This document shows, piece by piece, positions 4,511-52,577 of a stretch of 59,656 nucleotides of DNA. Position 1 is the stretch's first letter, and every line of letters begins with the position of its first letter. The stretch comes from a virus. Lineage: Duplodnaviria; Caudoviricetes. The notes under the pieces are model-generated. The model was given only the letters and a program-made list of their open reading frames with translations. It was not told where the DNA came from and did not search any database. The stretch lies in IMG/VR virus record IMGVR_UViG_3300009499_000123, positions 1 to 59,656 of that record; one strand, given 5' to 3'. A program made the position numbers and the translations under genes.

Positions 4511-4564
4511 TTGACAAACCACTATCCGACCGGAAATAATCTGAATCGTTCGGTACGCCGAACG
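4511..4564 (+). promoter_or_regulatory. Sigma70-like promoter with downstream palindromic operator
   Basis: TTGACA (4511-4516), 18-bp spacer, AATAAT (4535-4540). Inverted repeat CGTTCGG-tacg-CCGAACG at 4547-4564 and a CCGAAC half-site at 4491. Confidence 0.6.
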
Positions 4565-4647
4565 TTATCGGTCTGAAATCCCCAACAAGAAGACGGGGGC
4601 CTGGGCTGGTGCCAACCCAATCAAAACCTTGCAAAGGGGGAATGTCG

Positions 4648-36143: not shown

Positions 36144-36611
36144 ATGCGCGACACCATGCCGCTGACCGTCACCTTCGACGGCCAGACGACCCCGCTCGGC
36201 CTGCTCCAGGACATCGACAACGACAAGGCCCATCCGCTGGTGCGGGCCGTGCTCATCAGTCTCTTCACCTGGCGCCGCGCCAATGCCGACGACACCTTGC
36301 CCGACCCGAAGGGGTTTCGCATGGGCTGGTGGGGCGACTCCTACCCGGCGGTGGCCAACGACCGCATCGGCTCACGCCTGTGGCTGCTGGCGCGCGCGAA
36401 GCTCACGCTGACCACGGTGCAACGAGCCCAGGACTATGCCGAAGAGGCCCTGCAGTGGCTGATCGACGATGGCGTCGCCGCCCGCATCGCCGTGCGTGCG
36501 GAGCGCCAGGGCCTGTCGACGCTGGCCCTGCAATGCACGCTGTTCGCGGCCGATGGCACGGCGAACGCGGTGCTCAGGTTCGACAACCTCTGGAGTCTCT
36601 TGAATGTTTAA
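36144..36611 (+). CDS. Mu gp46-like baseplate protein
   Basis: ISLFTWRRA..GWWGD..IGSRLWLL.R.K..EALQWL..DG. Confidence 0.92.
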   Translation: MRDTMPLTVTFDGQTTPLGLLQDIDNDKAHPLVRAVLISLFTWRRANADDTLPDPKGFRMGWWGDSYPAVANDRIGSRLWLLARAKLTLTTVQRAQDYAEEALQWLIDDGVAARIAVRAERQGLSTLALQCTLFAADGTANAVLRFDNLWSLLNV

Positions 36612-37665
36612 CCGTCCGTCCCTCGCGGACCTGATCAATCGCACGACGAACGACGTGTTTCAACGGCTGCAGCAAGACAACGTGCTGCGCCGCGCCGACG
36701 CCCAGGTCTATGCCCGCGTGCTCGCCGGCGTGGCCCATGGCCTGTACGGTTTCATTGAATGGATCAGCCGCCAGATCATCATCGACACCGCCGAAGCCGA
36801 GTTCCTGGAGCGCTGGGCCTCCATCTGGGGCGTGCAGCGTCTCGCGGCAACACCCGCCACCGGCACCATCACCTTCACGGTGGCGCCGGGGGCAGCGGAC
36901 ATCCCGGCCGGTACGCTGGTGCAGACGCTCGATGGCACGCAATTCCAGACGACAGCGGACATCACGGTCAGCGGACTCCAGGCCACGACCACCGTCACGG
37001 CGGTCGCACCGTCTGCCGCCAGCAACGGCTACGCCGGGCAGACGGCCAATCTGGTCACGCCGGTGCTGGGCGTGCAGACCGCTGCCGTGCTCGGGCTGCT
37101 TGCCGGTGGCGGCGACCTCGAGTCCGACGACAGTCTGCGCGAGCGGCTGCTCAACCGCATCCAGCAACCGCCGCAAGGCGGGGACGCCAACGACTACGTG
37201 CAATGGACCCTGGCAACGCCCGGCGGCGGCGCCACCCGTGCTTGGGTCGTGGCCGAGCAATTCGGGCAAGGCACGGTGGGCGTCGCCTTCGTCTGCGACG
37301 GCAACGGCGCGGGCGCGGCGATCCTTCCCTCGGCCGCGCAGATCGCGGCCGTCGCCGCCTTCATCGACACGGTCCGCCCGGTCACCGCGCATGTGACGGT
37401 CTATGCGCCGGTCGCCGTGCCGATCGATTTCGCGATCGAAGGATTGAGCCCGGACACGCTGGCCGTTCAACAGGCCATCACGGCCGAACTCGCCGATCTG
37501 CTGGCGCGTGAGGGGCAGCCCGGCGGCACGATCCTGCTGTCGCACATGCGCTCGGCGATTTCCTCTGCGGCCCAGGAATGGGACTACGTGCTGGTTACTC
37601 CGGCCGCCAACGTCGTGTTGTCGCCCGGCCAAATCCCGGTCATGGGGAGGGTGGTATGGCAGTGA
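36604..37665 (+). CDS. Baseplate J / Mu gp47-like wedge protein
   Basis: GGGD.ESDDSLRERLL..PPQGG..DY..W..RAWV..GTV..RPVTA. Confidence 0.92.
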   Translation: MFNRPSLADLINRTTNDVFQRLQQDNVLRRADAQVYARVLAGVAHGLYGFIEWISRQIIIDTAEAEFLERWASIWGVQRLAATPATGTITFTVAPGAADIPAGTLVQTLDGTQFQTTADITVSGLQATTTVTAVAPSAASNGYAGQTANLVTPVLGVQTAAVLGLLAGGGDLESDDSLRERLLNRIQQPPQGGDANDYVQWTLATPGGGATRAWVVAEQFGQGTVGVAFVCDGNGAGAAILPSAAQIAAVAAFIDTVRPVTAHVTVYAPVAVPIDFAIEGLSPDTLAVQQAITAELADLLAREGQPGGTILLSHMRSAISSAAQEWDYVLVTPAANVVLSPGQIPVMGRVVWQ

Positions 37666-38279
37666 CGCAGCAGGTCAGCCAGCCACTGGCCGCCGCCGAC
37701 TACCTGGCGTCGCTGCAAAAGCTCCTGCCCTATGGCCCGGCGTGGACCGATGACGCCGACGCGGCCATCACCCGGCTGCTGACGGGCCTCGCGCAGGAAC
37801 TGGCACGGATCGATGCCAGAAGCTGGCAACTCATCGACGAGGCCGATCCGCGCACCACCAACGAATTGTTTCCCGATTGGCAGCGGGTGGCGGGCTTGCC
37901 CGATCCGTGCGTGGTAGCGCTCGGCAGTCAGCAGACGTTTGCGCAGCGACGGGCCACGCTGGTGTCCCGGCTGATCCAGGTCGGCGGCCAGTCTCGCGGT
38001 TACTTCATCGCCGTGGCGCGGGCATTGGGCTTCGCCATCTCGATCACTGAAGGCTGGCAGGAAATCGACACCGTCATTTCGCCGGTCAACAACCCGCTGG
38101 CCAATAGCAACTGGATTTACACCTGGACGATTCACGTGCCCCTCGGGGACACGCGCAGCACGCTCACCGTCAACGGCCGCGTCTCCGATCCGCTCGCGGC
38201 CTGGGGCAACACCTTGCTCGAGTGCGTGATGCGGCGGCTCAAGCCCGCCCACACCACGCTGCTCTTCAGCTACACGTAG
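37656..38279 (+). CDS. YmfQ / Mu gp48-like baseplate protein
   Basis: LLP.GPAW..E.DP..PDW.R..GLPD..GGQS..YF..LEC....KPAHT. Confidence 0.9.
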   Translation: MAVTQQVSQPLAAADYLASLQKLLPYGPAWTDDADAAITRLLTGLAQELARIDARSWQLIDEADPRTTNELFPDWQRVAGLPDPCVVALGSQQTFAQRRATLVSRLIQVGGQSRGYFIAVARALGFAISITEGWQEIDTVISPVNNPLANSNWIYTWTIHVPLGDTRSTLTVNGRVSDPLAAWGNTLLECVMRRLKPAHTTLLFSYT

Positions 38280-38287
38280 GAGATCAC

Positions 38288-38782
38288 ATGGACAACCGCG
38301 TCTGGGAGGCCAACGCCGCCCAAACACCACCTGCCGTGCCGGCCAATCCGTCGATCGGCTACCCGACCGACGGGAATCCGGCCACCAATACGCCGGCCAC
38401 CACGCCGGGGGATTACTGGTTCTATCAGGTCAGCGAGGAGATCCGCAATGTCATCCTGGCCGCTGGGCTCGCACCCGACCGCAACGCGCTCAACCAGCTC
38501 AGGCAGGCGATCGAGGTCCTGATCAATGCAGCGGTCGCCGCCGCGCTGGCGAACTACCGACCACCGGCGCCAGCTCCCACGCCCACACCGACCCCCGCAC
38601 CGACCCCGACGCCGACGCCGACGCCGACACCAACACCAACACCAACACCGACACCGACACCAACGCCTACGCCTACGCCAACTCCACCACCGCCGCCTCC
38701 ACCACCTCCACCACCTCCACCACCGCCGCCGCCACCGCCACCGCCACCGCCACCACCCCCACCGCCACCGCCGGGCGGCTGA
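38288..38782 (+). CDS. Tail-fibre-like protein (164 aa): Mu-type attachment domain, Pro-Thr repeats, Pro30, Gly-Gly
   Basis: TDGNP....PAT....WF....EE..NVI..AG...D....QL..AI is the Mu-type fibre N-terminus. Pro-X repeats at 38561-38683 and 30 Pro codons at 38684-38773; AGGAG RBS. Confidence 0.85.
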   Translation: MDNRVWEANAAQTPPAVPANPSIGYPTDGNPATNTPATTPGDYWFYQVSEEIRNVILAAGLAPDRNALNQLRQAIEVLINAAVAAALANYRPPAPAPTPTPTPAPTPTPTPTPTPTPTPTPTPTPTPTPTPTPPPPPPPPPPPPPPPPPPPPPPPPPPPPPPGG

Positions 38783-38791
38783 TCCAGGGAG

Positions 38792-39397
38792 ATGCCCATG
38801 TACCTGCAAATGGCCGGTCTGCAATTCATGCCGACCGGCGTGATCCTTTACGTCATCAACTACGTCGACCTCGATCGGCAGCACCTCGCCCGCGAGATCG
38901 ACGAGCGTTACGAGCCCTTCCACCACTGGGGCGAAGTGCCGGACGACTTCAGCTACCGCAAACCGTATCGCTACCGGTTGCGCGGCGGGGTGGTGGAAGC
39001 CTCGCCACCCGACGACCAGGACTACCGTTTCCACTACCGCCGGCTGCTGCTGATGGACAAGGTGCATGCGGCGTTGCGGGCGCAACGGACCTCATTCGGC
39101 TCGCGGTCCTTGCCGCTGCAGGAACGGCTGCTTGATCTCGCCCATGCCGAGTGCCAGGCGCTGAACGATCAGGGCGGCCAGAACGGTGAGGCGTTGCCGC
39201 TGCTGGAGGCGATGGCCACGGCCTGGAACACCACTCTGGCCACGGCGGCGGAGCGGGTGGGGATGGAGTACGCCGACCGGCAAGACGCGCTGATCCAGTC
39301 CGAGGTCCGCCGCTTACAGGCCCTGGCGGCCGTTTGTGCCGCGCGCGATCACCAGGACCTGGACGCGCTGTTCGTGAGGTACGGCTGCCATGACTGA
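38792..39397 (+). CDS. Putative tail-fibre assembly chaperone
   Basis: Directly after the fibre. C-terminal PLLEAMA..T.A..AERV..E..R..A..A..L pattern resembles fibre chaperones. Confidence 0.55.
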   Translation: MPMYLQMAGLQFMPTGVILYVINYVDLDRQHLAREIDERYEPFHHWGEVPDDFSYRKPYRYRLRGGVVEASPPDDQDYRFHYRRLLLMDKVHAALRAQRTSFGSRSLPLQERLLDLAHAECQALNDQGGQNGEALPLLEAMATAWNTTLATAAERVGMEYADRQDALIQSEVRRLQALAAVCAARDHQDLDALFVRYGCHD

Positions 39398-40406
39398 ATT
39401 GCTAGTCGCCCGCAATCTGGTGCGGGGCAATCCGTTCGCGAGCGGTCTGCGCCAGGTGATCGGGGGCGTCGTCACGACCTCGCGTCTGGCGTGCAAGCCC
39501 GATCTGTTGCGCTTTGGCGCGTGCTGCCCGATGCCCGATGCGACGACGGGGCCGCAGATGTCTTTCGCGGACTGCTGTGATGCCCGCGCGCGCGAATTGC
39601 TCGACGCGCATGCGCGGCTGCACGTCATGTGGTCGGGCGGTATCGATTCGACCGTGACGCTGGTCGCCTTGCTCAAGGCTTTGCCCGCCAACGAACACGA
39701 CCGGCTGACCGTGTACCTGTCGAGCCACAGCATCGCCGAGAATCCCGGGTTCTACCAGGCCCACATCGCCGGCCGGCTGCCCGTCCAACGGACTGTGGGC
39801 AAGGCAGGGTTGTACGACGAGGTGGTGGTCACCGGCGAGCTGGGTGACCAGTTGTTCGGTTCCGACCTGATGCTGGAGGCCACGCGGCGATTGGGCTTCG
39901 AGAGCTTGGCGCAGCCGCATGCCATGATCCTGCCCCGCCTGTTTGGCAGCATCGCCGGGGATGCCGAGGCAGGCGCCGCGATCTATCGGCGTTATGCGCC
40001 GATCGCCGACGAGGCTCCGTACCCTCTGGTCAGCGCCCAGGACTTCTTGTGGTGGTGGAACTTCTCCCAGAAATGGCAGCACGTGAAGTACCGGCATCTG
40101 CTCTATGAGCCACCGGGCTCGGACTATCGCGCGTTGCTCGGCAAGGTCCGGCATTTCTTCGATACGGAGACGTTCCAGCGCTGGAGCCTCACGCATCCCG
40201 CCGACAAACTGGGCGCCGGCATCGACACCTACAAGATGCCGGCCAAGCGCTACATCGTCGAGTTCACCGGCGATCAGAGCTACCTGACCAAGATGAAGAT
40301 CGGCTCGCTGTGCAAGGTCTTCAAGTATCCGCCGGTGGCCGCCATCACCACCGAGGGCGCGCCGGTCGATCAGGTCGGCTTGCAGGCGTTCGTCCTTTCT
40401 GACTGA
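39390..40406 (+). CDS. Asparagine-synthase-like ATP pyrophosphatase (PP-loop), no glutaminase domain
   Basis: VMWSGGIDST PP-loop and VVTGELGDQLFGS (compare the Asn synthase GEGADE.FGGY motif). Confidence 0.75.
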   Translation: MTELLVARNLVRGNPFASGLRQVIGGVVTTSRLACKPDLLRFGACCPMPDATTGPQMSFADCCDARARELLDAHARLHVMWSGGIDSTVTLVALLKALPANEHDRLTVYLSSHSIAENPGFYQAHIAGRLPVQRTVGKAGLYDEVVVTGELGDQLFGSDLMLEATRRLGFESLAQPHAMILPRLFGSIAGDAEAGAAIYRRYAPIADEAPYPLVSAQDFLWWWNFSQKWQHVKYRHLLYEPPGSDYRALLGKVRHFFDTETFQRWSLTHPADKLGAGIDTYKMPAKRYIVEFTGDQSYLTKMKIGSLCKVFKYPPVAAITTEGAPVDQVGLQAFVLSD

Positions 40407-40489
40407 ACGCCTCACTCCGTTCGTTTTCGATTCGCGGCCCGCGCCGCTCCCCCATTTGTTCAACCCATCCTTCCGAAGGAGGAATAGCC

Positions 40490-40816
40490 ATGCCTTTCAC
40501 CGTCACCAAAACCACCACGCGCCCAGCCAATGACGTGCCCGTCTTCAAGGACAGCGCCAATCTCGATCCCGAGGTTGCGACCGCGATCGCCAACGTCGGC
40601 CATGCCGTGCGCACGCATCCGGCCGTGCAGTCCCGCTCGGTCGAGATGTCGGCCGACGGGCTGACCAAGACCACGACCACCGTCTGGGAGAGCCAGGAGG
40701 CTTATGACAGCTTTCAGGCCGCCAACAGCGGTGACCTGGGCAAGGTCTCCAGCGCGGCCAGCGCCTACAACAAGTCCAACGGCATCGTCGTCAACACCAC
40801 CAAGACGGGGGCCTGA
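40490..40816 (+). CDS. Hypothetical protein (108 aa), possibly a dimeric alpha/beta barrel
   Basis: Strong AAGGAGG RBS. TTVWESQEAYDSF resembles the WES.EA motif of ABM-type barrels. Confidence 0.6.
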   Translation: MPFTVTKTTTRPANDVPVFKDSANLDPEVATAIANVGHAVRTHPAVQSRSVEMSADGLTKTTTTVWESQEAYDSFQAANSGDLGKVSSAASAYNKSNGIVVNTTKTGA

Positions 40817-40818
40817 TC

Positions 40819-41529
40819 ATGAAAACCGGCACCTATATCGACGCCCGGCACAGCATGTACCCGTGCCAGTCCTGGCTGCTGTCCAAGCCCGTCAAGGACC
40901 ACATCACCGTTCCGCCGTATTGCACACTGTACGGCTTTGTGGTTTCCGGCCACGCAGACCGGGCTGCCTCGATCATCGAGGGCGCGGCCGGAGCGGATGG
41001 TCCGAGGGTTCTGCGCCAAGCCGGACAGGGGCAGTATTTCTGCCACGCCACCGGCAGCGAAACGGCCACGCTGGTTCTCGATGACGAGGGCGACGTCCAG
41101 GTCTTTGCCGTGATCCGGCATGGTTTCCGTGGGCAGGGACTCGTCGGCGGGCCGATCGAGGCCTCGGGGCGGCTTTGCTACATCGACAACTGCTCGGACT
41201 CCCTGCTGGTCTACCCGCCGCGCAAGGGCGACCCGAGCCTGAATCACCTATCGTTCCCGGCCGGCGTGCGCCAGTCGTTTCACATCCATCCCTCGATTCG
41301 CCTGGGCGTGGTCGCCAACGGGTCCGGCTTTGCCTGCTTCGCGGACCGTGAGATGCCGCTGACGGCCGGCACCTTGTTCTGCATCGAGGAGCGCGAGCTG
41401 CATCGCTTCCGCACGGAAGATCAGCGGCTCGATGTCATCGCGTTCCACCCGGACGGCGATTGGGGGCCGACCGATCAGGATCACCCGATGCTCAACCGCA
41501 CGTATCTGTCGGCGGCGCGTCATGAATGA
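40819..41529 (+). CDS. Cupin-domain protein
   Basis: HIHPSIRLGVVANGSG..L.AG..F.I....LHRF cupin metal motif. Confidence 0.78.
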   Translation: MKTGTYIDARHSMYPCQSWLLSKPVKDHITVPPYCTLYGFVVSGHADRAASIIEGAAGADGPRVLRQAGQGQYFCHATGSETATLVLDDEGDVQVFAVIRHGFRGQGLVGGPIEASGRLCYIDNCSDSLLVYPPRKGDPSLNHLSFPAGVRQSFHIHPSIRLGVVANGSGFACFADREMPLTAGTLFCIEERELHRFRTEDQRLDVIAFHPDGDWGPTDQDHPMLNRTYLSAARHE

Positions 41530-42193
41530 TCCGGCCCTCCTACGGATGACATACCCCGATGCGCAGCTGCATGCCGGCGGGCATCGGCACCAGGTGCTGA
41601 CGGCGGTCCGGTCGCCCAATATCGTCGTGCTGGGCGGGTTTCTGGACGAGGACGCCTGCCGCGATCTGATCGATCTGGCCCGCCCGCGCATGAAACGGTC
41701 CTCGGTCGTGCATCACGCCGAGGGGGTGCGCATCGACGAAACGCGCACCAGTTCCGGCTGCCATTTCCGGCGCGGGGAAGTGGCGCTGGTGGCGGGCATC
41801 GAGCAGCGCATCGCCGAACTCACCGACATCCCCCCGGAAAACGGCGAGGGCCTGCAGGTGTTGCATTACCTGCCTGGGCAGCACTACGTCCCGCACTGGG
41901 ATTACTTCCCGCCGGAGAGCCCTTCGTCCGCCGACATCGTCCGGCCGGAATTCGGCGGCCAGCGTGTCGCCACCTTCATCGCCTACCTGAACACCGTTCC
42001 CCTCGGCGGGGAGACGGAATTCCCGCGTGCCAGCGTCAAGGTGGCAGCCGTCCAGGGTAATGCCTGCTTTTTCTCCTACCGCACGGCGGATGGACAGCCC
42101 GATCCACTGACGCTGCACAGCGGCAACGCCGTCATCGACGGCGAGAAGTGGATCGCGGTCAAGTGGCTGCGCGAGGGGCGCTATCCCCAGTAA
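41522..42193 (+). CDS. Prolyl 4-hydroxylase-like 2OG-Fe(II) dioxygenase
   Basis: RTSSG, EGLQVLHY..GQ.Y.PHWD (HxD), QRVAT...YLN.V..GGET.FP and LHSG..V..GEKW. Confidence 0.92.
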   Translation: MNDPALLRMTYPDAQLHAGGHRHQVLTAVRSPNIVVLGGFLDEDACRDLIDLARPRMKRSSVVHHAEGVRIDETRTSSGCHFRRGEVALVAGIEQRIAELTDIPPENGEGLQVLHYLPGQHYVPHWDYFPPESPSSADIVRPEFGGQRVATFIAYLNTVPLGGETEFPRASVKVAAVQGNACFFSYRTADGQPDPLTLHSGNAVIDGEKWIAVKWLREGRYPQ

Positions 42194-42253
42194 GGCCGGC
42201 CGAGCCATGAGTCGGCTCGGCGGCATCCCAAATTTCAACGAAAGGAGTCAGAC

Positions 42254-42535
42254 ATGAGCGATGTCTGTGAATGCGGCCGTCCCATCGGTCCGCAAGTAGA
42301 GCGGCATGCCGGCGGCGTGCTGTCGGACAGCGATCGGCAGGCGCTGGCCGATGCGCTGTGCGAGGCATTCGAAAAATCGGCGCCGGTACTGTCCCAAGCC
42401 CTGTCCGATGCGCTGCAAGCGCAGTTCGAGCGCGTGATCGGGCGTGGTGTCGTGGGCTGGCTCAAACGCATCCTGATCGCCGGCATCTTGATTCTGGCCG
42501 GCTACACCTACACGAAAACCGGAGGTCTGAAATGA
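42254..42535 (+). CDS. Single-TM membrane protein (holin/antiholin candidate)
   Basis: AAGGAG RBS; C-terminal hydrophobic helix; first gene of the lysis region. Confidence 0.55.
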   Translation: MSDVCECGRPIGPQVERHAGGVLSDSDRQALADALCEAFEKSAPVLSQALSDALQAQFERVIGRGVVGWLKRILIAGILILAGYTYTKTGGLK

Positions 42536-43008
42536 ACATCACTATCACCCGAAAACAGTCCACGCCCAGCGGCACCCCGGGTCAACTGGTCGCCACAAAT
42601 CCGGCAGGTGAGACCTTTACCTGCAACACCCTGGAGCTACCGTGGCAGGACAACACCCCGGGCGTGTCCTGCATCATCGATGACAGCTACGGCGCGACGA
42701 TCTGGCATTCCGATCATCTCGACTGCGACGTCCTGCGTCTGGAAGACAAGCATGGCCGGCAGAACTGCCTGATCCACTGCGGCAACTTTGCCGGGGACGT
42801 CTCGCAGGGCATGGAAACCCAGGTACACGGCTGCACGCTGGTCGGCAGCCGCTACGGGTCGCTGGTCAATGACGACGGAGATGGGCAACTGGCCATCCTA
42901 GACAGCCGCGTGACGCTGGCCAAACTGGTCGCCTTCGTCGGCAGCGGTGAGCACACCGTCAACTATCAATGGGCGGAAGGCTGTGACCCTGCCGCCTGCC
43001 ACGCTTGA
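42532..43008 (+). CDS. DUF5675-like protein, endolysin candidate
   Basis: T.G.L..C.TLELPW.DN....SCI..LIH.GN..GC.LVG; sits between two membrane-protein genes. Confidence 0.7.
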   Translation: MNITITRKQSTPSGTPGQLVATNPAGETFTCNTLELPWQDNTPGVSCIIDDSYGATIWHSDHLDCDVLRLEDKHGRQNCLIHCGNFAGDVSQGMETQVHGCTLVGSRYGSLVNDDGDGQLAILDSRVTLAKLVAFVGSGEHTVNYQWAEGCDPAACHA

Positions 43009-43020
43009 GGAGGGAACACC

Positions 43021-43398
43021 ATGGACATCAGTGGCATCGGCACGGCGGCGGAAGCCGCCAAGAGCATCATCGGCATGTTCTTCCCCGACAAGACCGAGGA
43101 GGACAAGGCCAAGCTGGCAGCGACGCTGGCGCTCATTCAGACGCAGACCGATATCGACAAGGCCGAGGCGCAGAGCTCGGACCCGTTGCAGCACTGGCGC
43201 GGGGGCCTCGGCTGGGTGTGCGTCGCGGGGTATTTCTGGAACTTCGTCGGCGGGCCGCTCACGAACGCGGCAGCGGCCGCCGTCGGCCATCCGCTCAATC
43301 TGCCGTCGCTCGACCTCGGACCACTGGCCACGCTCACGCTCGGCATGTTGGGGCTCGGTGGGCTGCATGTGGCGGAGCGGGTGAACGGGGCGGCGTAG
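43021..43398 (+). CDS. 3TM-type holin
   Basis: D..EA.S...WR...GWVC..GMLGLGG signature. Confidence 0.8.
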   Translation: MDISGIGTAAEAAKSIIGMFFPDKTEEDKAKLAATLALIQTQTDIDKAEAQSSDPLQHWRGGLGWVCVAGYFWNFVGGPLTNAAAAAVGHPLNLPSLDLGPLATLTLGMLGLGGLHVAERVNGAA

Positions 43399-43541
43399 CG
43401 ATGTGCCAAGCTAGCCTCCCGGCATGGAATCGAGACGGGTGGGTAATTTCACGGCGCCCCGAAGCCTGCAAGCCAAGAAATCCTTGGCTTGCAGGCCGAA
43501 CCGAGCGTTCATGTCATCCACAGTCACAACGGAACATAGAG

Positions 43542-43836: not shown

Positions 43837-44784
43837 TCAGTCCTCCATCTCGGGAACGTCCCAGTCCACCAGACGTGCCTCGCCGGTCTGGTAGAACTGC
43901 TTCACCAACTTCACGTACTCCAAAAAATCCCGGTTCTCCGTGGCCAGTCGGTTAGCCATATCCCAATCGATCTCGTCACGCTCGCGCGCCGGAATCAGCA
44001 CTTGGCTGTCAGCAGGGTTGTCCACATCCAGCTTGATGAAGCCGATGCCGTGGGCGGCGAAGAGCATCCGCAGCTCCTTCAGGGTGTCGGTGCCGCCAAT
44101 TTCCGCCGCAACCAGATAGCCGAAGTTGGCCCACGATGAGTTCGATACGGCCTGAAAGAAGCACTCACGCACGTTTGAACGGTTGATCAGCAGCTTGGCC
44201 TCGAACGACCACAGCTTGGTGCGCTTGTCGGAATACTGGTTGACGCAGTCGCGTACCTCCTGATGCCACTCAGCGCCCAAGTCCTCCATGCCGACCACGT
44301 CCGGGTACAGCCAGCGGTTGCCGTTGGGGCCGCGTTTGTTCGATGACCGCTTTTCGTCGATGCGCTTGGAGAACACGCCGAATTCTTCCCACAGGTATTG
44401 CGACAGCAATGGATACAGCGCATGCTCGTCGATCTTCAAAGCACTCGCATCTGCTGCCGCCGACGTTCCCTCGCTTTCGACCGCTGCCACTTCGGCGCTG
44501 TCTGAGCGCTCCGAGTAGTAGTACCTGCGTGGCCGCCCCTCGGTCGTTTTCAGCTCTGGGTGCCGCGTTTGCATGCGCGGGCGCTGCGAGCTGATCTCTG
44601 CAACGAGTTGCTGCACCAAATCAGCATCGGACTTGATGTAATCGCCCCGACTATTTGCCCGCTTTTCCTGACACTCATCCGGGTAGGTGGCGAATACCCA
44701 CTCGGCGATCTGCCGTGCAGTGAACTTCTCCTCGGGTCGTTCCTTCAGGTAGCCGATGACGGCCTTTGCCAGATTGAGTGCCAT
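43837..44784 (-). CDS. COG2958/HrgA-like protein (HTH plus PD-(D/E)xK nuclease-like)
   Basis: EHALYPLL..W.YPDVVG..SFE.K..FFQAVSNSSWANFGYLVA. Confidence 0.8.
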   Translation of the reverse strand: MALNLAKAVIGYLKERPEEKFTARQIAEWVFATYPDECQEKRANSRGDYIKSDADLVQQLVAEISSQRPRMQTRHPELKTTEGRPRRYYYSERSDSAEVAAVESEGTSAAADASALKIDEHALYPLLSQYLWEEFGVFSKRIDEKRSSNKRGPNGNRWLYPDVVGMEDLGAEWHQEVRDCVNQYSDKRTKLWSFEAKLLINRSNVRECFFQAVSNSSWANFGYLVAAEIGGTDTLKELRMLFAAHGIGFIKLDVDNPADSQVLIPARERDEIDWDMANRLATENRDFLEYVKLVKQFYQTGEARLVDWDVPEMED

Positions 44785-44795
44785 TGTTCTTCCCC

Positions 44796-45572
44796 TCAGA
44801 GCCGGAACAGCTTCTTGATTTCATTCTCTGCCGTTACCGGCATGTCATCTTTTTCGTACTGCTTGACGTTGGCCGCGATGCTTTTTGCTCGGGTGATTTC
44901 GTTGTTCACCCACTGCGAGTAGGACGAGTTCGTATTCAGGTTCTCGATGACTGCCAGAAAGTAGTCCTTTTGGTTCGACAGAAACCAGAAGTTCAGGCCA
45001 CAGACCCATTTCTCCATCTCGAAGGATTGGAAAGGGAATCCGGCAGTTGCATTCCAGTACTTGAAAAGCCGAATCGTTGGTTTGATCAGCGATTTATGAT
45101 CTTTGTTCTTTGCTTCGAGCGTGGAGTTGAAGTCGTTCGGGTTGGTGGTCATCCAACCACCGGAGGTATTCGGGATTTGCAATCCGTCGAGCCATGCCAT
45201 CGTTGCTGGTACGAGGTCGAACTTGATGTGATTCAGTTCGAGCAAGATAGTTGGGCTGGACTGCCGGATCTCCGACGAGCCGTAATATTTCTCGACGAAG
45301 GTCTTGAGCCGATTCAAATATGTCTGAGGCGTGGCATTGTTCTCGCTGAAGACGATCATGTAATCGATATCCGAATGCTCGTCCATCGAGCGCGGCAGGA
45401 TGGTTCCCCGCGTCGATGAGCCGAAGCGGAAGTGCCGCTTGATTACACTACTGGCGAAATGCTGCCCGATCCGGGTTTGCAACGTCGAAATGGAGGTCGT
45501 GATCGACGACTGCTCGGTCGACGAAAGCACTGCATTGCTGGCAGTGTCCGTCAGAAAGCTCAATACTGACAT
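44796..45572 (-). CDS. SMODS-type (CD-NTase-like) nucleotidyltransferase
   Basis: FGSSTRGT..SDIDY and KFDLVPA catalytic triad, W..TNP, IRL.KYWN. Confidence 0.85.
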   Translation of the reverse strand: MSVLSFLTDTASNAVLSSTEQSSITTSISTLQTRIGQHFASSVIKRHFRFGSSTRGTILPRSMDEHSDIDYMIVFSENNATPQTYLNRLKTFVEKYYGSSEIRQSSPTILLELNHIKFDLVPATMAWLDGLQIPNTSGGWMTTNPNDFNSTLEAKNKDHKSLIKPTIRLFKYWNATAGFPFQSFEMEKWVCGLNFWFLSNQKDYFLAVIENLNTNSSYSQWVNNEITRAKSIAANVKQYEKDDMPVTAENEIKKLFRL

Positions 45573-45576
45573 CCTG

Positions 45577-46098
45577 TCACTCCTCCTTGTCCACCTTGTG
45601 GGTAGCTTCGCCTTCCTCGATTCCCCTGCGTGCGGCGACGAACGCCCTTCGAGGAATGCTCGGACTCTTCTGGTTCAATTCGTTACGCTCGGTCGCGAGA
45701 GCCTTTAATCTCTCGGACATCTCATTCAGCCGATCCGCCTGAAGTAGTTCGATTTCCCGGAAGAAGCGCACGTCATTTCTGAGAGCTAGGAATTTCCCGG
45801 CGGCGGCACGATGCATTGCCGCGCGTTCATTGGGCTTGAGAAACGTCATAAGCCCCGTCAGCAGCGATGCCAGCAATGCAAATGCGCTAGCCAATTCCGG
45901 CTGGCTCTTTATCAGCGTGGCCCCGGCAATCGCCGCGAGCGCCGTCGCGGGAATGCCCAACCAATAGTTCCGCCTTACCCAGGTGTCCTCAGCGTTGAAG
46001 TGCCCTTTGCTGGAGTATGTCGCATCCTCCTCTATCCGTTCGGCCTCGCGGTGCAGAGCCAAAATCATGGACTGATCGGTTGTTTGAATCTGGCTCAT
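45577..46098 (-). CDS. SLATT-domain 2TM effector
   Basis: SSKGHFNA...W....WLGIP, two TM helices, A..H..A..F..L, then C-terminal helices; adjacent to the SMODS gene. Confidence 0.8.
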   Translation of the reverse strand: MSQIQTTDQSMILALHREAERIEEDATYSSKGHFNAEDTWVRRNYWLGIPATALAAIAGATLIKSQPELASAFALLASLLTGLMTFLKPNERAAMHRAAAGKFLALRNDVRFFREIELLQADRLNEMSERLKALATERNELNQKSPSIPRRAFVAARRGIEEGEATHKVDKEE

Positions 46099-46112
46099 TG
46101 TGTGCACCTCTT

Positions 46113-49100
46113 TCAGGCCAACCCGAAATACCGCTCGAAGTACGCAGCGAGCTTTTCCAGCACCGTCTGTTTCTTGGCTGCATGGCCATTATTCTTTGAG
46201 AATCTCGACACAGGAGGCAGGATTTTGGTGATCGCGGTGCCAGTGACGGGGATGCTCCCGTCGCGGAAAGCGTTATCGATGAAGCTGCGCGTGGCCTCGG
46301 CGTTGAGGTTCTCTTCCGTGATGATGCGTTCCAGCTCCTCGAGCTTCTTCGTTGCCACGAATGCCTGCCATTGCTCGTCCACCTTGAATTTAGTGGTGAC
46401 CGAATCGACAAAATCTTCGATCAGGTCTTTCTTGTTGCGTAGGCCAGGACTGGAGTTGATGGCGCGCTCGATGGTGGCGCGAATTTCCTTGTCGTCGCCT
46501 GTGCCTTTTTTCTTCAGGTACTGCTCGACCAACAGCAGGATGTAGTCGACGTTGATTTCGACCTGTTTGATCAGCTCGATCTCAAACACCACGTCGTCGT
46601 TGATCGATTCTTTCTCGGCATCAGACGTGGCGCGGAATTCCGCGTACAGATTCAGGTACAGGCTTTGGTAGTCCTGAAACTCGCGATCTGTGAGTATTTC
46701 GTTCCCAGCGAAATCGTCGAAGGCCGTCAAGATGTTCTTCAAACGCAAGATCGAGCCGAACAGTTTGATGAACGCTTTCTGTGCCGCTTCGCCGACGATG
46801 GCTTTTCCGAGCGGGAATCCTGCCACCAACTCACCGACGCGTTTTTCGTACTCCTTGTAGTACTCTGCATAGGGCTTGAGCAGCACGATGCCCTTGGCAT
46901 CCTTGTTGCCGAACAGGGCCAGCGCGTCATTGGTCTCCTGCTCCAGATTGCGGAAGGAAACGATGTTGCCGTAGGTCTTGACCGAGTTGAGGATGCGGTT
47001 GGTGCGCGAGTACGCCTGAATCAAACCGTGCGCCTTGAGGTTCTTGTCAGCCCACAGGGTGTTGAGCGTGGTAGCGTCGAAGCCGGTAAGGAACATGTTG
47101 ACCACGATCACCATATCCAGCTCACGTTTTTTCAGGCGCTGCGACAGGTCCTTGTAGTAGTTCTGGAATTTATCCGCCGAGGTGTCGAAGCTGGTGCCGA
47201 ACAAGGTGTTGTAGTCCTGGATCGCAGCTTCGAGAAAATCGCGCGAGTTGGCATCCAGTCCCTCGGTTTCAAATTCCTCTTCACCCAGCAAGCCGTCGCC
47301 TTCTTCCTCATTGGCGGCAAAGCTGTAGATCAGGCCCACCTTTAGCCGTTGTGCCTCGGGTAAGTCTTTTTGCTGCGCGGTGAATTCCGCGTAGTAGCGT
47401 TTGGCGGCATCGATGGAGGCACAGGCGAACAGCGAGTTGAAGCCTGCCAGGCGCTTACCGTCGTGACGGTAGCTGCTGGCGCGCTTGGTCTTCTGATCGA
47501 AGTGCTCGCGAATGTAGCCCACGATCTGCGTGATGCGTTCCGGTGCCAAGAGCGCCCGCTCGGTGTCGATGGCCGACACCTTTTTGTCCTTGATGCCCGC
47601 CTGCGTTTTGATCGTGTTGATGTAGTCGATGCGAAACGGCAGCACGTTTTTGTCGTTGATGGCATCAACGATGGTGTAGGTATGCAACTTATCGCCAAAG
47701 GCCTGCTGCGTGGTACGCCGCAGCGGGTTGCCGGAGGTGCCGGAGTTCTCGGCAAAGATCGGCGTGCCGGTGAAGCCGAACAGGTGGTAGCGTTGGAACA
47801 CCCGGGTGATTTCGGCGTGCATATCGCCGAACTGGCTGCGGTGGCACTCGTCGAAGATCACCACCACATGTGCCTCATACACCGGGTGCTTCTTGTTCCT
47901 GGCCACGAAGCGGGAGAGCTTCTGAATGGTCGTAATGATGATGCGGGCGTTTGGGTCTTCCAACTGCTTTTGCAACACTGCCGTGGAGGTGTTCGAGTTG
48001 GCCGCGCCCTTCTCGAAGCGCTCGTACTCGCGCATGGTCTGGTAGTCCAGATCCTTACGATCCACCACGAACAACACCTTGTCCACGTCGGGCAGCCCCC
48101 GAGCGAGCTGCGCCGCCTTGAAACTGGTGAGCGTTTTTCCAGAGCCGGTTGTGTGCCAGATGTAGCCGCCCGCCGCCACTGTGCCCAACTGCTTGTGATT
48201 AGTGGCGGTGGCGATGCGCTGCAGGATGCGCTCGGCAGCCACGATCTGATAGGGCCGCATCACCAGCAGCTTGCGATCCACATCGAACACACAATATTTG
48301 GTGAGGATGTTGAGCAGCGAATGCTTGGCGAAAAAGGTCTTGGTGAAGCCCGTCAGCTCGGTGATCGGCTGGTTCTTCGCGTCGGCCCACCAGCTGGTGA
48401 AGGAAAAGCTGTTGGAGGTTTTGCTCTTGCTGCGCTTGCTGGACTGCTCCTTCAAATGCCCATCGCGTACGGTGTTGCTGTAGTACTTGGTCAGCGTGCC
48501 GTTGCTGATCACGAACAGTTGGACGTACTCGAACAGGCCAGAGCCCGCCCAGAAGCTGTCGCGCTGGTAGCGATTGATCTGATTAAAGGCCTCACGAATG
48601 TCCACTCCACGGCGTTTGAGTTCGATGTGTACCATCGGCAGGCCGTTGACCAGCACGGTCACATCAAAGCGGGTTGCACGTGCGCCTTCAGATTCGTACT
48701 GGTTGATCACCTGCAGCGCGTTGTTATGGATATTGGCCTTGTCGATCAGGTAGATGTTCTTGGTGCTGCCGTCGTCGCGCTTCAAAACCTGGACGTGGTC
48801 TTCCTGAATGCGCGCGGTCTTTTCCAGAATGCCATCGTTGGCGCCGGCGATGCTGGCCGTGAAGAATCGTTCCCACTCGGCATCGGAAAAGCTGATTTTG
48901 TTGAGCTTTTCCAATTGACGGCGCAGGTTGGTAATCAGCTCAGTTTCCGAGGTCAGGGCCAAGTAGTCATAGGCCTGTAGCTGCAATTGCTGGATGAATG
49001 CCTTCTCCAAAGCGGCTTCGCTTTGATAAGTGGCCTCCCGCACGCTCGGTACATCGGGCAAGAATTCGGCGACGACGGTGCTCTCGTTGGAAAGAGCAAT

Positions 49101-49136
49101 CGGTTCGTAACGAAATGGCTTGAGGTCTTCGCTCAT
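46113..49136 (-). CDS. hsdR: Type I restriction endonuclease subunit R
   Basis: D....NGLP..IELK nuclease motif, HTTGSGKT, DECHRS, FTGTP and QAYSRTNR. Confidence 0.96.
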   Translation of the reverse strand: MSEDLKPFRYEPIALSNESTVVAEFLPDVPSVREATYQSEAALEKAFIQQLQLQAYDYLALTSETELITNLRRQLEKLNKISFSDAEWERFFTASIAGANDGILEKTARIQEDHVQVLKRDDGSTKNIYLIDKANIHNNALQVINQYESEGARATRFDVTVLVNGLPMVHIELKRRGVDIREAFNQINRYQRDSFWAGSGLFEYVQLFVISNGTLTKYYSNTVRDGHLKEQSSKRSKSKTSNSFSFTSWWADAKNQPITELTGFTKTFFAKHSLLNILTKYCVFDVDRKLLVMRPYQIVAAERILQRIATATNHKQLGTVAAGGYIWHTTGSGKTLTSFKAAQLARGLPDVDKVLFVVDRKDLDYQTMREYERFEKGAANSNTSTAVLQKQLEDPNARIIITTIQKLSRFVARNKKHPVYEAHVVVIFDECHRSQFGDMHAEITRVFQRYHLFGFTGTPIFAENSGTSGNPLRRTTQQAFGDKLHTYTIVDAINDKNVLPFRIDYINTIKTQAGIKDKKVSAIDTERALLAPERITQIVGYIREHFDQKTKRASSYRHDGKRLAGFNSLFACASIDAAKRYYAEFTAQQKDLPEAQRLKVGLIYSFAANEEEGDGLLGEEEFETEGLDANSRDFLEAAIQDYNTLFGTSFDTSADKFQNYYKDLSQRLKKRELDMVIVVNMFLTGFDATTLNTLWADKNLKAHGLIQAYSRTNRILNSVKTYGNIVSFRNLEQETNDALALFGNKDAKGIVLLKPYAEYYKEYEKRVGELVAGFPLGKAIVGEAAQKAFIKLFGSILRLKNILTAFDDFAGNEILTDREFQDYQSLYLNLYAEFRATSDAEKESINDDVVFEIELIKQVEINVDYILLLVEQYLKKKGTGDDKEIRATIERAINSSPGLRNKKDLIEDFVDSVTTKFKVDEQWQAFVATKKLEELERIITEENLNAEATRSFIDNAFRDGSIPVTGTAITKILPPVSRFSKNNGHAAKKQTVLEKLAAYFERYFGLA

Positions 49137-49720
49137 GCGGCGTCCCTAAAGGTGAGCAGCCGGTCGCGGTAATGCGCGTACTGCTGGCGGCGTGCCTTGA
49201 TTTCAGCCGGCAGGCCGAAAGAAATATCGTTTACCAGCGTGTCAAATTTATCGAGGATGGCGACGATGCGTTCTTGTTCTTCGAGCGGCGGGACAGGAAT
49301 TGTCAGTTTGGCCAGGCTTTCACCGGACAAACGCTTAACCTTTGCACGGGCGACAAATTTATTTTTCTCAGCATTGAATCTCTCTGTCTGGAAGCAATAC
49401 GACACAAACTTTGGATTCATTGAGTGCTGAAATGCAAAGCAGTCGTCGTGAATCGCAACTTTATCCGCGCCCAGCCAAGCAACGGCCTTGCCGACGTCCT
49501 CAACCGTCTCGCCGACAGCAGCAATAACGATGTCGCCCTGTTGCGCGAAACGCAGTGTTGACACCAGGTCAGCGCGCACATGCGAAACCGCCTGCGTTGC
49601 GGAGGTTCCGTACTGGGTATAAATATCGCCATAGTGAATGCAGCCGATTCCGTCCGGGACGTAATCACCCTTGGTGAATCGGCGGCCGCGCGTGAATTTT
49701 CCAATCTCACCCAAGGTCAT
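49133..49720 (-). CDS. hsdS: Type I specificity subunit, 3' half (second TRD), currently out of frame with the 5' half
   Basis: IPVPPLEEQERIVAILDKFD..GLPAEI.AR..QY..YRDRLLTF. Confidence 0.85.
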   Translation of the reverse strand: MTLGEIGKFTRGRRFTKGDYVPDGIGCIHYGDIYTQYGTSATQAVSHVRADLVSTLRFAQQGDIVIAAVGETVEDVGKAVAWLGADKVAIHDDCFAFQHSMNPKFVSYCFQTERFNAEKNKFVARAKVKRLSGESLAKLTIPVPPLEEQERIVAILDKFDTLVNDISFGLPAEIKARRQQYAHYRDRLLTFRDAA

Positions 49721-49725
49721 CCACC

Positions 49726-50417
<692 letters not shown>

Positions 50418-50421
<4 letters not shown>

Positions 50422-52058
50422 GCTTGTTCTCCTTCCAGATCTGCAACGATGGCATCGATCTGCTCCCTCAATTCCACTTGTCGAGCCACGATGCGGCTGA
50501 TCTCGGCGTTGAGCACCCGGATGTCCACGGCTACGCTAGTGTCGGCCTGCTCGACATAGCTGGACACTGCGATGTTGTAGCCATTGGCGGCAATGTCACC
50601 GTTCTCGACCAGCCGCGCGAAGTGTTCGATGCTCTGGCGACGGGCGAAGGCATCGAGGATTCTTTGCTGGTGCTCGGGCAGCAGCTTGTTCTTATTGCCG
50701 CTGCGAATGAATTCGGCGCTGGCGTCGATGAAGAGCGTGGCGTTGTCACGTTTGGATTTCTTCAGCACGATGATGCACGTGGCGATAGTGGTGCCGAAGA
50801 ACAGGTCGGGCGGCAGCTGGATGACCGCATCAACATAGTTGTTGTCAATCAGGTACTGGCGAATCTTCTGCTCCGCGCCACCGCGATAGAGCACGCCGGG
50901 GAATTCAACAATCGCTGCAGTGCCGTTGACCGCCAACCAGCTCAGGATGTGCAAGGTGAAGGCCAGGTCGGCCTTGCTCTTGGGTGCAAGCACACCCGCC
51001 GGGGCGAAGCGCGGGTCGTTGATCAGCAGGGGGTTGGCGTCACCGTCCCATTTGATCGAGTACGGCGGATTGGAGACGATGGCCTCGAACGGTTCGTCGT
51101 CCCAGTGCGCCGGATCGGTGAGTGTGTCACCGTGGGCAATGTTGAACTTTTCGTAATTCACATCGTGCAGGAACATGTTGATCCGGCACAGGTTGTAGGT
51201 GGTGAGATTGATTTCCTGGCCAAAGAAGCCCTGGCGCACCTTGTCGTGGCCCAGCACCTTGACGAAGTTGAGCAGTAGCGAGCCGGAACCGCAGGCGGGG
51301 TCATAGACCTTGTTAACTTCGGTTTTGCCCGCCACCGTGATACGCGCCAGGAGCTCAGAGACTTCCTGGGGAGTGTAGAACTCGCCGCCGGACTTGCCGG
51401 CAGTGGAGGCGTACATCTGCATCAGGTATTCGTAGGCGTCGCCGAACAAGTCGATGCTGTTGCTGGTAAAGCGGCCCGAGCCATTGGAGAGCGGCAGATC
51501 GCCGATGGCGTCGAGCAGCTTTACCAGCTTTTCATTGCGCTTGGCCACCGTGGGTCCGAGCTTGCTGCTGTTGACGTCGAGGTCGTCGAACAGGCCTTTG
51601 AAATCGTCCTCGCTATCGGAGCCGGTGGCAGAGCCTTCAATGTCGGCGAATACCCGGCTTAGCGTTTCATTGAGGTTGGTATCCAGTCGGGCGCGTTCGC
51701 GCACATTGGCGAACAGTTCCGAAGGTAGGATGTAAAAGCCCTTTTCCTTCACCGTCTCGGCGCGACCGAACTCTGCATCCGTATCGCTCAGGGCGGCGTA
51801 GTCGAAATCTGCGCTGCCCGCCTTGCGTTCCTGTTCATTGAGGTAGCCGGTTAGGTTCTCCGAAATAAAGCGGTAGAACAACATGCCGAGCACATAGCTC
51901 TTGAAGTCCCAGCCGTCCACACTGCCGCGCAGATCGTTGGCGATGCGCCAGATGGTCTTGTGAAGCTCTGCTCGCTCGGTTTCTTTACGACGACTGCGGG
52001 CGTCTGACTCACAGCGATTGTCCTCGCCCTGTTTTATTGCCATTTCAATGTTGGTCAT
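50418..52058 (-). CDS. hsdM: Type I methyltransferase subunit M
   Basis: [17 protein letters not shown] and NPPY. Confidence 0.96.
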
Positions 52059-52073
52059 ACTCGTTCTCGTCTT

Positions 52074-52577
52074 TTATGTCTTTGGAGGCTGCGCTGCATC
52101 GAGCGCCACCAACATTTGTTCAGCCGCATCCCACGGTAGACGCCTGCCGTTGAGACGCATCTTGTTCAATGCCGCTCTGGCCACCGCGACCGTGATGCGC
52201 TGCTCGCGTACCATCTCGCCTATCAGCCAGATCGTGCCCTTGACTTCCACCTGCTCGGCGTCCGCCGCTTGTCTCAACGCAGCATCGCCCGTCAACAGTG
52301 GGCATTTCTCGACCTCGGCCAATGCCAGTGCAAACAAGTCGTTGCGGCCTGGCTTGGCGTAGGTCTGCGCCAACATCTGAACGCGCTCAACGCTTTTCGC
52401 CGAAAGCGTTCGCGTCTGCAGGCCCATGTCGAGCAAATGGGCGTGCTGCTCTTCCAGTTCCTCGTAGTACAAAATGTCCGGCACGGCGAACTGGTAGCCG
52501 AGACTGAACATTGGTGCCACCAGATCGCCCACTTCAACATCCATCAAGATGTTGGCATCACTGATTAACAGCAGCAT
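52074..52577 (-). CDS. PIN-domain protein (DUF3368-like)
   Basis: ISDANILMD..EL..ND...LALA..LLTGD..LR..A..GTIW. Confidence 0.82.
   Translation of the reverse strand: MLLLISDANILMDVEVGDLVAPMFSLGYQFAVPDILYYEELEEQHAHLLDMGLQTRTLSAKSVERVQMLAQTYAKPGRNDLFALALAEVEKCPLLTGDAALRQAADAEQVEVKGTIWLIGEMVREQRITVAVARAALNKMRLNGRRLPWDAAEQMLVALDAAQPPKT

Follow-up and report, generated by a model that had tools for sequence, protein, structure and literature searches.

Genes for prolyl 4-hydroxylase (P4H) are common in phage genomes and metagenomes. The use to which viruses put this enzyme "remains cryptic", in the words of a 2022 survey of viral auxiliary genes (PMC9301287). For P4H-1 of the alga Chlamydomonas, the substrate is an extended proline-rich peptide, and in a crystal structure of the enzyme a proline-rich (Ser-Pro)5 peptide occupies a tunnel (PMC9676403). 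Poly(hydroxyproline) helices of algal mastigonemes are described as extracellular rods (PMC11015965). Among viruses, the chlorovirus PBCV-1 encodes a P4H (PDB 5c5t) together with proline-rich proteins that have been proposed as its substrates. Eriksson et al. reportedly dealt in 1999 with this enzyme and with the proline-rich open reading frames (ORFs) of the same virus. Here we describe a P4H gene that lies 2.7 kb downstream of a short tail-fiber gene ending in a run of 30 proline codons, with four genes between the two, in the IMG/VR viral record IMGVR_UViG_3300009499_000123. The complete record, which comprises 59,656 bp with a GC content of 63%, was analyzed and is referred to below as the window. 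Our preferred reading, to which we assign about an even chance, is that the phage P4H hydroxylates the fiber tail into a hydroxyproline rod, and that the fiber serves as a reach or adhesion element.

A short tail fiber with a polyproline tail

The fiber gene, its parts, and the baseplate gene that precedes it are arranged in the window as follows.

37656 to 38279, + strand: Mu gp48-type baseplate wedge gene (start uncertain, 37578 or 37656)
38288 to 38782 (including stop), + strand: short tail-fiber gene with a polyproline tail, ATG to TGA, 164 aa
38288 to 38560, + strand: N-terminal (baseplate-proximal) domain of the tail fiber, residues 1-91, conserved and with PHROG matches
38561 to 38683, + strand: Pro-Thr/Pro-Ala dipeptide segment, 41 residues (92-132), from the codon listing, with Tandem Repeats Finder periods of 6 and 18
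38684 to 38773, + strand: 30 consecutive Pro codons, residues 133-162, in mixed synonymous codons
38774 to 38782, + strand: Gly-Gly-stop cap, GGC GGC TGA, with a terminal Gly in all 12 complete orthologs

The ORF at 38288 to 38782 is assigned as a fiber gene because residues 24 to 86 of its product match the PHROG tail-fiber families 6859, 1858, 2617, and 1833 (E values of 1e-7 to 1e-9), and because it occupies the usual position of a fiber gene, directly after the genes for the baseplate wedge proteins gp47 and gp48. It is separated by 9 bp from the end of the gp48-type gene, which matches Pfam family PF10076 (Phage_Mu_Gp48, E 4.6e-28) and the baseplate wedge subunit family phrog_203 (E 1.2e-55).

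The original prediction for this gene was that approximately 41 residues of Pro-Thr and Pro-Ala, then 30 proline codons of mixed type, and finally GGC GGC TGA are present where a receptor-binding domain would be expected. A codon listing reveals exactly this sequence. The segment from 38561 to 38683 consists of one Pro followed by 20 Pro-Thr or Pro-Ala dipeptides, and the Pro run that follows uses CCA 15 times, CCG 11 times, CCT three times, and CCC once, with no more than three identical codons adjacent to each other. The run has C at every one of its 60 first and second codon positions, and all four bases are represented at the third positions. The Pro codons of five neighboring genes are CCG (49), CCC (21), CCA (5), and CCT (0). 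Since these neighbors rely mostly on CCG and CCC, the codon use of the tract is atypical.

The longest Pro run elsewhere in the window, with all six frames considered, is 4, and the maximum reached in 100 order-2 Markov simulations is 5. Within the tract, Tandem Repeats Finder detects imperfect periods of 6, 9, 18, and 33 nt with 77-85% matches. Residues 92 to 164 of the protein are 70% Pro and otherwise include only Thr, Ala, and Gly, a low-complexity composition that is not that of a folded distal domain. The further claim that no other fiber or tailspike gene is visible agrees with our scans, wherein no other such match was obtained among 39 distinct ORFs compared with Pfam or PHROGs, the region from 1 to 19 kb lying outside this family scan.

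Conservation and selection of the fiber gene

Related loci were collected by using the baseplate protein gp47 and three proteins encoded downstream of the fiber gene, namely a 199-aa protein, a synthetase, and the P4H. Versions of the fiber were counted at loci where the fiber N-domain is at least 70% identical, which yielded 29 loci with 14 distinct proteins, 12 of them complete. A 1514-bp fragment (L226), in which a stop occurs after 24 fiber codons, was left out of all counts. Carriers of the fiber include Comamonas phosphati, a Ralstonia metagenome-assembled genome (MAG), two Undibacterium isolates, Xanthomonas sp. GPE 39, X. albilineans, a proteobacterial MAG, and viral contigs. A thirteenth version of the polyproline fiber (P0001) comes from a protein database.

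If the gene were a truncated pseudogene, its close homologs had been expected to continue in frame into a globular domain. Instead, all 12 complete versions end in a Pro-rich tract plus Gly. A comparison of tract length among homologs, as originally proposed, reveals that the tract after the N-domain varies from 59 to 91 residues, of which 57-96% are Pro and the rest are Thr, Ala, Val, and Ser. The longest pure Pro run ranges from 11 to 83 residues and is located at the C terminus or no more than 4 residues from it. The final residues of the 12 proteins are GG, SGG, TGG, QG, or DG. Ten versions terminate with TGA and two with TAA, one TGA is followed by an in-frame TAG, and the position of the stop is conserved even though the codons differ.

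The ratio of nonsynonymous to synonymous substitution rates (dN/dS) for the fiber N-domain is 0.08-0.15, at dS values of 0.7-1.3. Values for the five genes that follow the fiber are 0.07-0.18 (dS 0.5-1.5), and those for baseplate and lysis genes are similar. Because dN/dS is low while dS is high, the architecture has been kept over a long divergence. The whole tract, with its flanks likewise 216 nt apart, is contained in a 29.7-kb contig from public run X1, possibly the run from which the window itself derives, and the contigs of run X12 break within the tract. On the strength of these comparisons, we consider the polyproline ORF to be an intact, selected fiber gene rather than a truncated pseudogene or a one-off assembly artifact.

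Two other ways of extending the protein were considered and rejected. Read-through of the stop into the in-frame next ORF is ruled out by the differing stop codons, by the TGA-TAG tandem, and by the Shine-Dalgarno sequences that the downstream genes have of their own. For a programmed frameshift within the tract, the alternative-frame extensions past the stop measure 4 to 135 residues over nine loci and are not conserved.

The mixing of synonymous codons was originally taken to argue for selection on the protein and against simple slippage. The first part of this argument holds, and the second must be qualified because the tracts turn over fast. Relatives with 97-100% identity in their N-domain DNA share only 72-79% identity in the tracts or are distinguished there by in-frame insertions and deletions (indels). 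For example, the window and two other loci (L001 and L126) exhibit 97-99% identity in N-domain DNA and 74-79% identity, with indels, in their tracts, and another pair of loci (L128 and L129) has identical N-domains followed by tracts that differ by in-frame indels. The tract DNA diverges approximately tenfold faster than the N-domain, yet it remains in frame and Pro-based. The fact that tracts have diverged between near-identical N-domains indicates that codon mixing does not make the tract stable. This fast turnover probably proceeds via higher-order repeats. What selection keeps is the reading frame, a Pro-based composition, a total length of 59 to 91 residues, and the terminal Gly.

The tail in place of a distal domain

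An exhaustive search with the 92-residue N-domain returned 2155 representatives at E <= 1e-3. The 150 best of these N-domain representatives, which have a median length of 281 aa, include none with a Pro-rich tail, defined as a 30-residue window with at least 40% Pro after residue 85. Small globular domains are found at the ends of two short relatives, P0002 (230 aa) and P0003 (194 aa). Likewise, prophages with gp47 proteins of no more than 59% identity carry fibers of 174-453 aa that have globular ends. Thus the prediction that a Pro tract is present in place of a receptor-binding domain is well founded, in that related fibers carry a globular distal domain at this location. These comparisons indicate that the Pro-rich tail occupies the place of a distal, presumably receptor-binding, domain, and that this form of the fiber is confined to one clade.

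The downstream prolyl 4-hydroxylase and its linkage to the fiber

Five genes, here called the cassette, are located between the fiber gene and the lysis genes.

38798 to 39397, + strand: 199-aa clade-specific protein, with its own Shine-Dalgarno sequence
39390 to 40406, + strand: AsnB-like synthetase-domain protein (PP-loop, SGGIDS), 338 aa, without a glutaminase domain
40490 to 40816, + strand: 108-aa clade-specific protein, present in every complete cassette
40819 to 41529, + strand: cupin-fold protein, 236 aa, with matches to Pfam AraC_binding (E 2.5e-6) and Cupin_2 (E 4.6e-5)
41522 to 42193, + strand: prolyl 4-hydroxylase (2OG-Fe(II) oxygenase; start uncertain, 41432 or 41522)

The product of the last gene matches PF13640 (2OG-FeII_Oxy_3) with 44.4 bits, where the gathering cut-off is 27. 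All nine of its matches among solved structures in the PDB are prolyl 4-hydroxylases with full-length similarity, and a prolyl hydroxylase of the HIF or EF-Tu type is not found among these nine. Chlamydomonas P4H-1 (2jig/3gze, E 2.4e-43) leads these matches, with the P4H of Bacillus anthracis (E 5e-37) second, and further relatives include human collagen P4H (2e-19) and the chlorovirus enzyme (E 2.5e-12). The HxD...H...K motifs and a Tyr of the catalytic loop align between the phage and Chlamydomonas proteins. Moreover, the phage motifs PHWDYF, LHSGN, and KWIAVKW, each with a counterpart in the alignment to the algal enzyme, do not vary among the clade members (11 of 11). The roles of these motifs, wherein a His-x-Asp...His triad holds the iron and a Lys binds 2-oxoglutarate, are as given in PMC9676403. 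Such agreement indicates that the downstream gene encodes a genuine P4H of the collagen/plant type.

We then examined how the cassette is distributed relative to gp47. Among 19 loci with gp47 identity of at least 80%, all five cassette genes are present in 13, and the contigs of the other 6 end before that position. At 21 loci with gp47 identity of no more than 59%, none of the five genes is found. This distribution shows that the polyproline fiber and the five-gene cassette are a co-inherited package.

The synthetase has relatives in 533 viral stretches or more. Of 75 distant viral loci with a synthetase (L141-L215, GC 31-61%), 37 have a cupin gene beside it, and none has the P4H, the fiber N-domain, the 199-aa protein, or the 108-aa protein. 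For both the synthetase and the cupin families, PHROG matches and informative Pfam matches are lacking. Recurrent neighbors of the synthetase-cupin pair include weak tail-fiber-like, Gly-rich, and virion structural matches, and a family of approximately 211 aa is encoded just upstream. The synthetase-cupin module may be concerned with fibers in general.

An unrelated viral contig with a GC content of 48% (L011, positions 4528-5929) provides another independent case of a P4H paired with a polyproline protein, wherein the gene for a distant P4H (34% identity) is followed 224 bp later by a polyproline gene. The protein encoded by the latter is membrane-anchored and has 26 consecutive Pro residues followed by a globular domain. 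It is not a fiber of the family described here.

Other products of the cassette

The 199-aa protein has only 12 homologs, all of which are at least 60% identical and belong to the polyproline clade, and alignment reveals an N-terminal stretch of ~60 residues that is rich in aromatic side chains and hardly varies. An AlphaFold2 model of this protein has a pLDDT of 63, with helices at residues 76-194 and no resolved N terminus. When this low-confidence model was used for a fold search of a viral library, only uncharacterized phage proteins were returned (E >= 4e-4). A complex prediction with the 199-aa protein and the whole fiber, run without controls, gave a score of 0.00, which speaks neither for nor against binding. 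We also considered whether the 199-aa protein is a diverged member of the ~211-aa family encoded upstream of the synthetase in other phages, and this was rejected on the basis of a hidden Markov model comparison (E 0.12) and an hhalign probability of 0.1.

Synthetase residues S82, G83, G84, D86, and S87 are invariant in 46 sequences, and the AlphaFold2 model of the protein has a pLDDT of 93. Its top Foldseek matches are to carbapenam and beta-lactam synthetases, asparagine synthetase, and LarE, which are modest similarities with E values of 6e-4 to 5e-3 and TMq of 0.35-0.45. Searched against BFVD, the model matches phage proteins labeled "Asparagine synthase" with TM values of up to 0.89. An N-terminal glutaminase domain is lacking, as the 338-aa protein matches only the C-terminal half of targets of approximately 500 aa, and sequence profiles (NCBIfam, and Pfam at loose thresholds) match only its PP-loop.

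The 108-aa protein has no match in Pfam, PHROG, or NCBIfam. Sequence searches of solved structures with the synthetase, the cupin, and the 108-aa protein yielded nothing or matches at chance level. In two Xanthomonas prophages (L003, 9600-11680; L004, 9600-10625), an insert of low GC content (44%) is present between the synthetase gene and the gene for the 108-aa protein. These inserts encode, on the opposite strand, one or two paralogous multi-pass membrane proteins of 228-231 aa and are likely morons.

Proposed function of the tail and alternative explanations

From the architecture of the fiber, its conservation and selection, the replacement of its distal domain, the identity of the P4H, and the co-inheritance of the two, we infer hydroxylation of the tail, a rod conformation, and a role in adsorption. 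In this scheme, the conserved N-domain would dock on the baseplate next to gp48, and the Pro-Thr/Ala/Val dipeptides, the pure Pro run, and the Gly cap would together form an extended rod of the polyproline-II type. A polyproline-II helix extends by approximately 0.31 nm per residue, and tracts of 59-91 residues would therefore have a reach of approximately 18-28 nm. The original prediction was a rod of approximately 20 nm for the window tail, with a reach that repeat length might tune. Many of the tail prolines would be turned into 4-hydroxyproline by the P4H while the fiber is still in the cytoplasm, at the latest during assembly of the tail, and the hydroxylated rod could be stiffer, hydrogen-bonding, and extensin-like, providing the phage with its reach or adhesion element. 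The rod itself may adhere to the host, or a partner protein may bind to it or be joined to it.

Synthesis of such a protein presents its own demands. A C-terminal Pro slows release and provokes tagging, and efficient termination after the proline run is a plausible benefit of the terminal Gly. Consecutive prolines are described to stall ribosomes, with relief by EF-P that is only partial (PMC11611912, PMC5811046). Translation of 30-83 prolines must, we expect, depend heavily on EF-P.

The bare Pro tail could instead serve as an unmodified rod or spacer, with the P4H and the other four genes forming an unrelated moron cassette that entered together with the fiber swap and has another target, be it a host or a phage protein. 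We regard this explanation as possible, if on balance improbable, and the following observations favor it or weigh against our preferred reading. All carriers belong to a single clade, and therefore co-inheritance may represent one acquisition followed by linkage rather than functional coupling. The synthetase and the cupin form a separate, widespread module, and thus the cassette is not a single unit. The P4H gene is four genes and 2.7 kb away from the fiber gene rather than adjacent to it. Among 120 viral stretches in which 20 or more Pro codons are consecutive, a P4H relative is present in one (L011) within the DNA fetched, and the same contig is the only one of four distant P4H locus types with a Pro-rich ORF nearby, such that most distant P4H loci lack Pro-rich neighbors. 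No glycosyltransferase family was matched among the cassette proteins in Pfam, PHROG, and NCBIfam scans. The viral enzyme is cryptic in its use, according to the survey quoted at the outset (PMC9301287), and an unpublished analysis cited in PMC7019647 is stated there to have found no hydroxyproline in PBCV-1 particles despite the P4H of that virus. However, the phage enzyme belongs to a type for which a solved relative has been seen to bind proline-rich peptides, and the most proline-rich substrate possible is encoded 2.7 kb upstream, in a window whose longest Pro run elsewhere is 4. Moreover, the P4H is under purifying selection in every member of the clade, which also argues against an unmodified tail.

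The tail could also be a handle for a separately encoded protein of 199 or 108 aa, which would supply receptor binding in trans, either by binding the rod or through its ligation to the terminal Gly by the synthetase. The clade-specific 199-aa gene (12 homologs) is located where a fiber chaperone or adhesin is usually encoded, and the near-invariant, aromatic-rich N terminus of its product is consistent with such a function. Similarly, the terminal Gly is invariant (12 of 12), the fold class that the synthetase most resembles adenylates carboxylates to form amides, and the synthetase-cupin module is found among fiber-like and virion genes in other phages, although by weak matches. We nevertheless judge this explanation unlikely. 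Neither homology nor structure reveals either small protein to be an adhesin, the model of the 199-aa protein being helical and of low confidence. The module is present without a polyproline fiber at all 75 distant loci, so its substrate cannot be specific to the tail, and termination of translation after Pro is the simpler explanation for the Gly. Less likely again, and in our estimate distinctly so, is that the five genes constitute a full fiber-maturation pathway, wherein the P4H makes a poly-hydroxyproline rod and the synthetase adenylates the terminal Gly and joins it through an amide to the 108-aa or 199-aa protein or to a host-surface amine, such that the tip would be attached post-translationally. 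A role for the tract in translation, as an EF-P-dependent pause before the stop and 10-16 nt upstream of the next gene that times or throttles expression of the fiber and the cassette, seems very improbable. The stalling and partial relief noted above (PMC11611912, PMC5811046) would fit this role, as would the fact that the run is always at the 3' end of the gene, directly before the Shine-Dalgarno sequence of the next. However, approximately three prolines suffice to stall a ribosome, and 59-91 residues with a conserved Pro-Thr/Ala/Val composition far exceed this need. The tract is also attached to a conserved structural domain, and stalling is better seen as a cost or side-effect. That the ORF is a truncated or decaying remnant, or a repeat misassembly, we find scarcely credible. 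The fiber does lack a recognizable receptor-binding domain, the short-read contigs of X12 break in the tract, and the 1514-bp L226 carries its stop after 24 codons. Against this, the 12 complete and distinct versions derive from independent assemblies, are all in frame, and all end in Gly. Their dN/dS is approximately 0.1 at a dS of approximately 1, the stop is held in position by differing codons, and the 29.7-kb X1 contig, possibly the window's own source, spans the tract at the same length.

Genomic setting of the locus

By its gene content, the window phage is best classed as a Mu-like temperate myovirus prophage. Pfam and PHROG scans reveal genes in the window for a tail sheath, a tape measure, two baseplate hub proteins, and wedge subunits, and the terminase, portal, and capsid genes are assigned from gene order and size in the ORF map alone. 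A nucleotide search of a phage collection with positions 36600-43400 produced a single, uninformative match of 176 bp, to Paraburkholderia phage IPK. Near-identical copies of 38100-39000, sharing at least half of the sampled words, are present in 17 public runs, and the 20 runs that hold copies of this region represent 12 studies, including sediment, soil, and groundwater metagenomes and RNA libraries. The presence of copies in many runs suggests that the phage or its host is widespread, or that it is recurrent across data sets. Contigs from RNA libraries (runs X15 and X16) cover the fiber N-domain and cassette genes, although such contigs cannot show transcription or rank genes.

The lysis region (42254-43398) encodes a 93-aa protein without a family, a DUF5675 protein (42532-43008), and a holin of the gene-transfer-agent type with three transmembrane segments (43021-43398). 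No canonical endolysin family was matched in this region in Pfam and PHROG scans. After the lysis genes, a defense island of lower GC content (54-58%) occupies 43837-53625 on the − strand. It encodes a SMODS nucleotide synthetase with a SLATT effector that has two transmembrane segments (CBASS-like), the R and M subunits of a type I restriction-modification system, a DUF3368 protein, and an IrrE/HTH (M78 peptidase) regulator. A RepB/ParB-like gene is located at 55238-56140. Large serine recombinase genes are present near both ends of the record on the − strand, at 855-2210 and at 57012-58577. The latter matches Pfam Resolvase and Recombinase, and the former was assigned from its translation only.

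Comparison with known systems

In this phage lineage, a P4H is co-inherited with a virion protein that is a candidate for an almost pure substrate, which provides a likely and testable target for a puzzling phage enzyme. Conversely, the linked P4H, which the original prediction did not take into account, alters the most likely chemistry of the fiber tail. Because the prophage is present in sequenced isolate genomes (Comamonas phosphati and Undibacterium), the question of hydroxylation is directly testable. The usual picture of an anchor plus a folded receptor-binding tip is challenged by a phage that appears to carry only a thin proline rod, and a run of up to 83 consecutive prolines is an extreme case for EF-P-dependent translation in bacteria. 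Among the papers listed in our literature searches, none describes, to judge from its title and the opening of its abstract, a tail fiber that ends in polyproline and is paired with a P4H.

The closest structural counterparts of the fiber are ordinary short fibers such as P0002, P0003, and those at loci L224 and L236-L238 (PHROG families 6859, 1858, and 2617). These share the N-domain of approximately 90 residues at 46-70% identity, and their genes, which lie in Mu-like tail modules, likewise come immediately after the gp48-type baseplate gene. However, they have a globular distal domain and total lengths of 174-453 aa, whereas the window fiber has a Pro-rich tail only. The tail itself resembles Pro-Thr linkers and the Pro-rich spacers of secreted proteins in being extended, of low complexity, and variable in length. 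The same is true of the collagen-like segments of Escherichia coli prophage tail fibers (PMC3368898). Such linkers and segments join folded domains, whereas here the spacer has nothing after it and the protein finishes in an uninterrupted stretch of 11-83 prolines.

PBCV-1 offers the precedent of a virus that encodes both a P4H and its proposed proline-rich substrates. Its enzyme is much more distant from that of the phage (E 2.5e-12), and it is a eukaryotic giant virus with no tail fiber. The P4H of B. anthracis (PDB 3itq, 5hv0), the second-best solved relative, is likewise a bacterial, cytoplasmic, and stand-alone enzyme. The B. anthracis enzyme acts on collagen-like Gly-Pro-Pro peptides, and unlike this substrate, the phage tail has no collagen-like repeat.

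The Chlamydomonas system is eukaryotic and secretory, and it employs Ser-Pro motifs and heavy glycosylation. In contrast, the phage tail is almost without Ser, and its modification would be cytoplasmic. The Ser-(Pro/Hyp)n pattern of hydroxyproline (Hyp)-rich glycoproteins and extensins is absent from the window tract, which contains no Ser, and the tracts of the 12 orthologs contain 0-3 Ser residues each. Because it is without Ser-Pro motifs, glycosyltransferases, and a secretory route, the phage system is not a member of the hydroxyproline-rich protein class, yet our comparisons suggest that it works like a hydroxyproline-rich protein system, with a P4H of the collagen/plant type and a proline-rich chain encoded in the same prophage.

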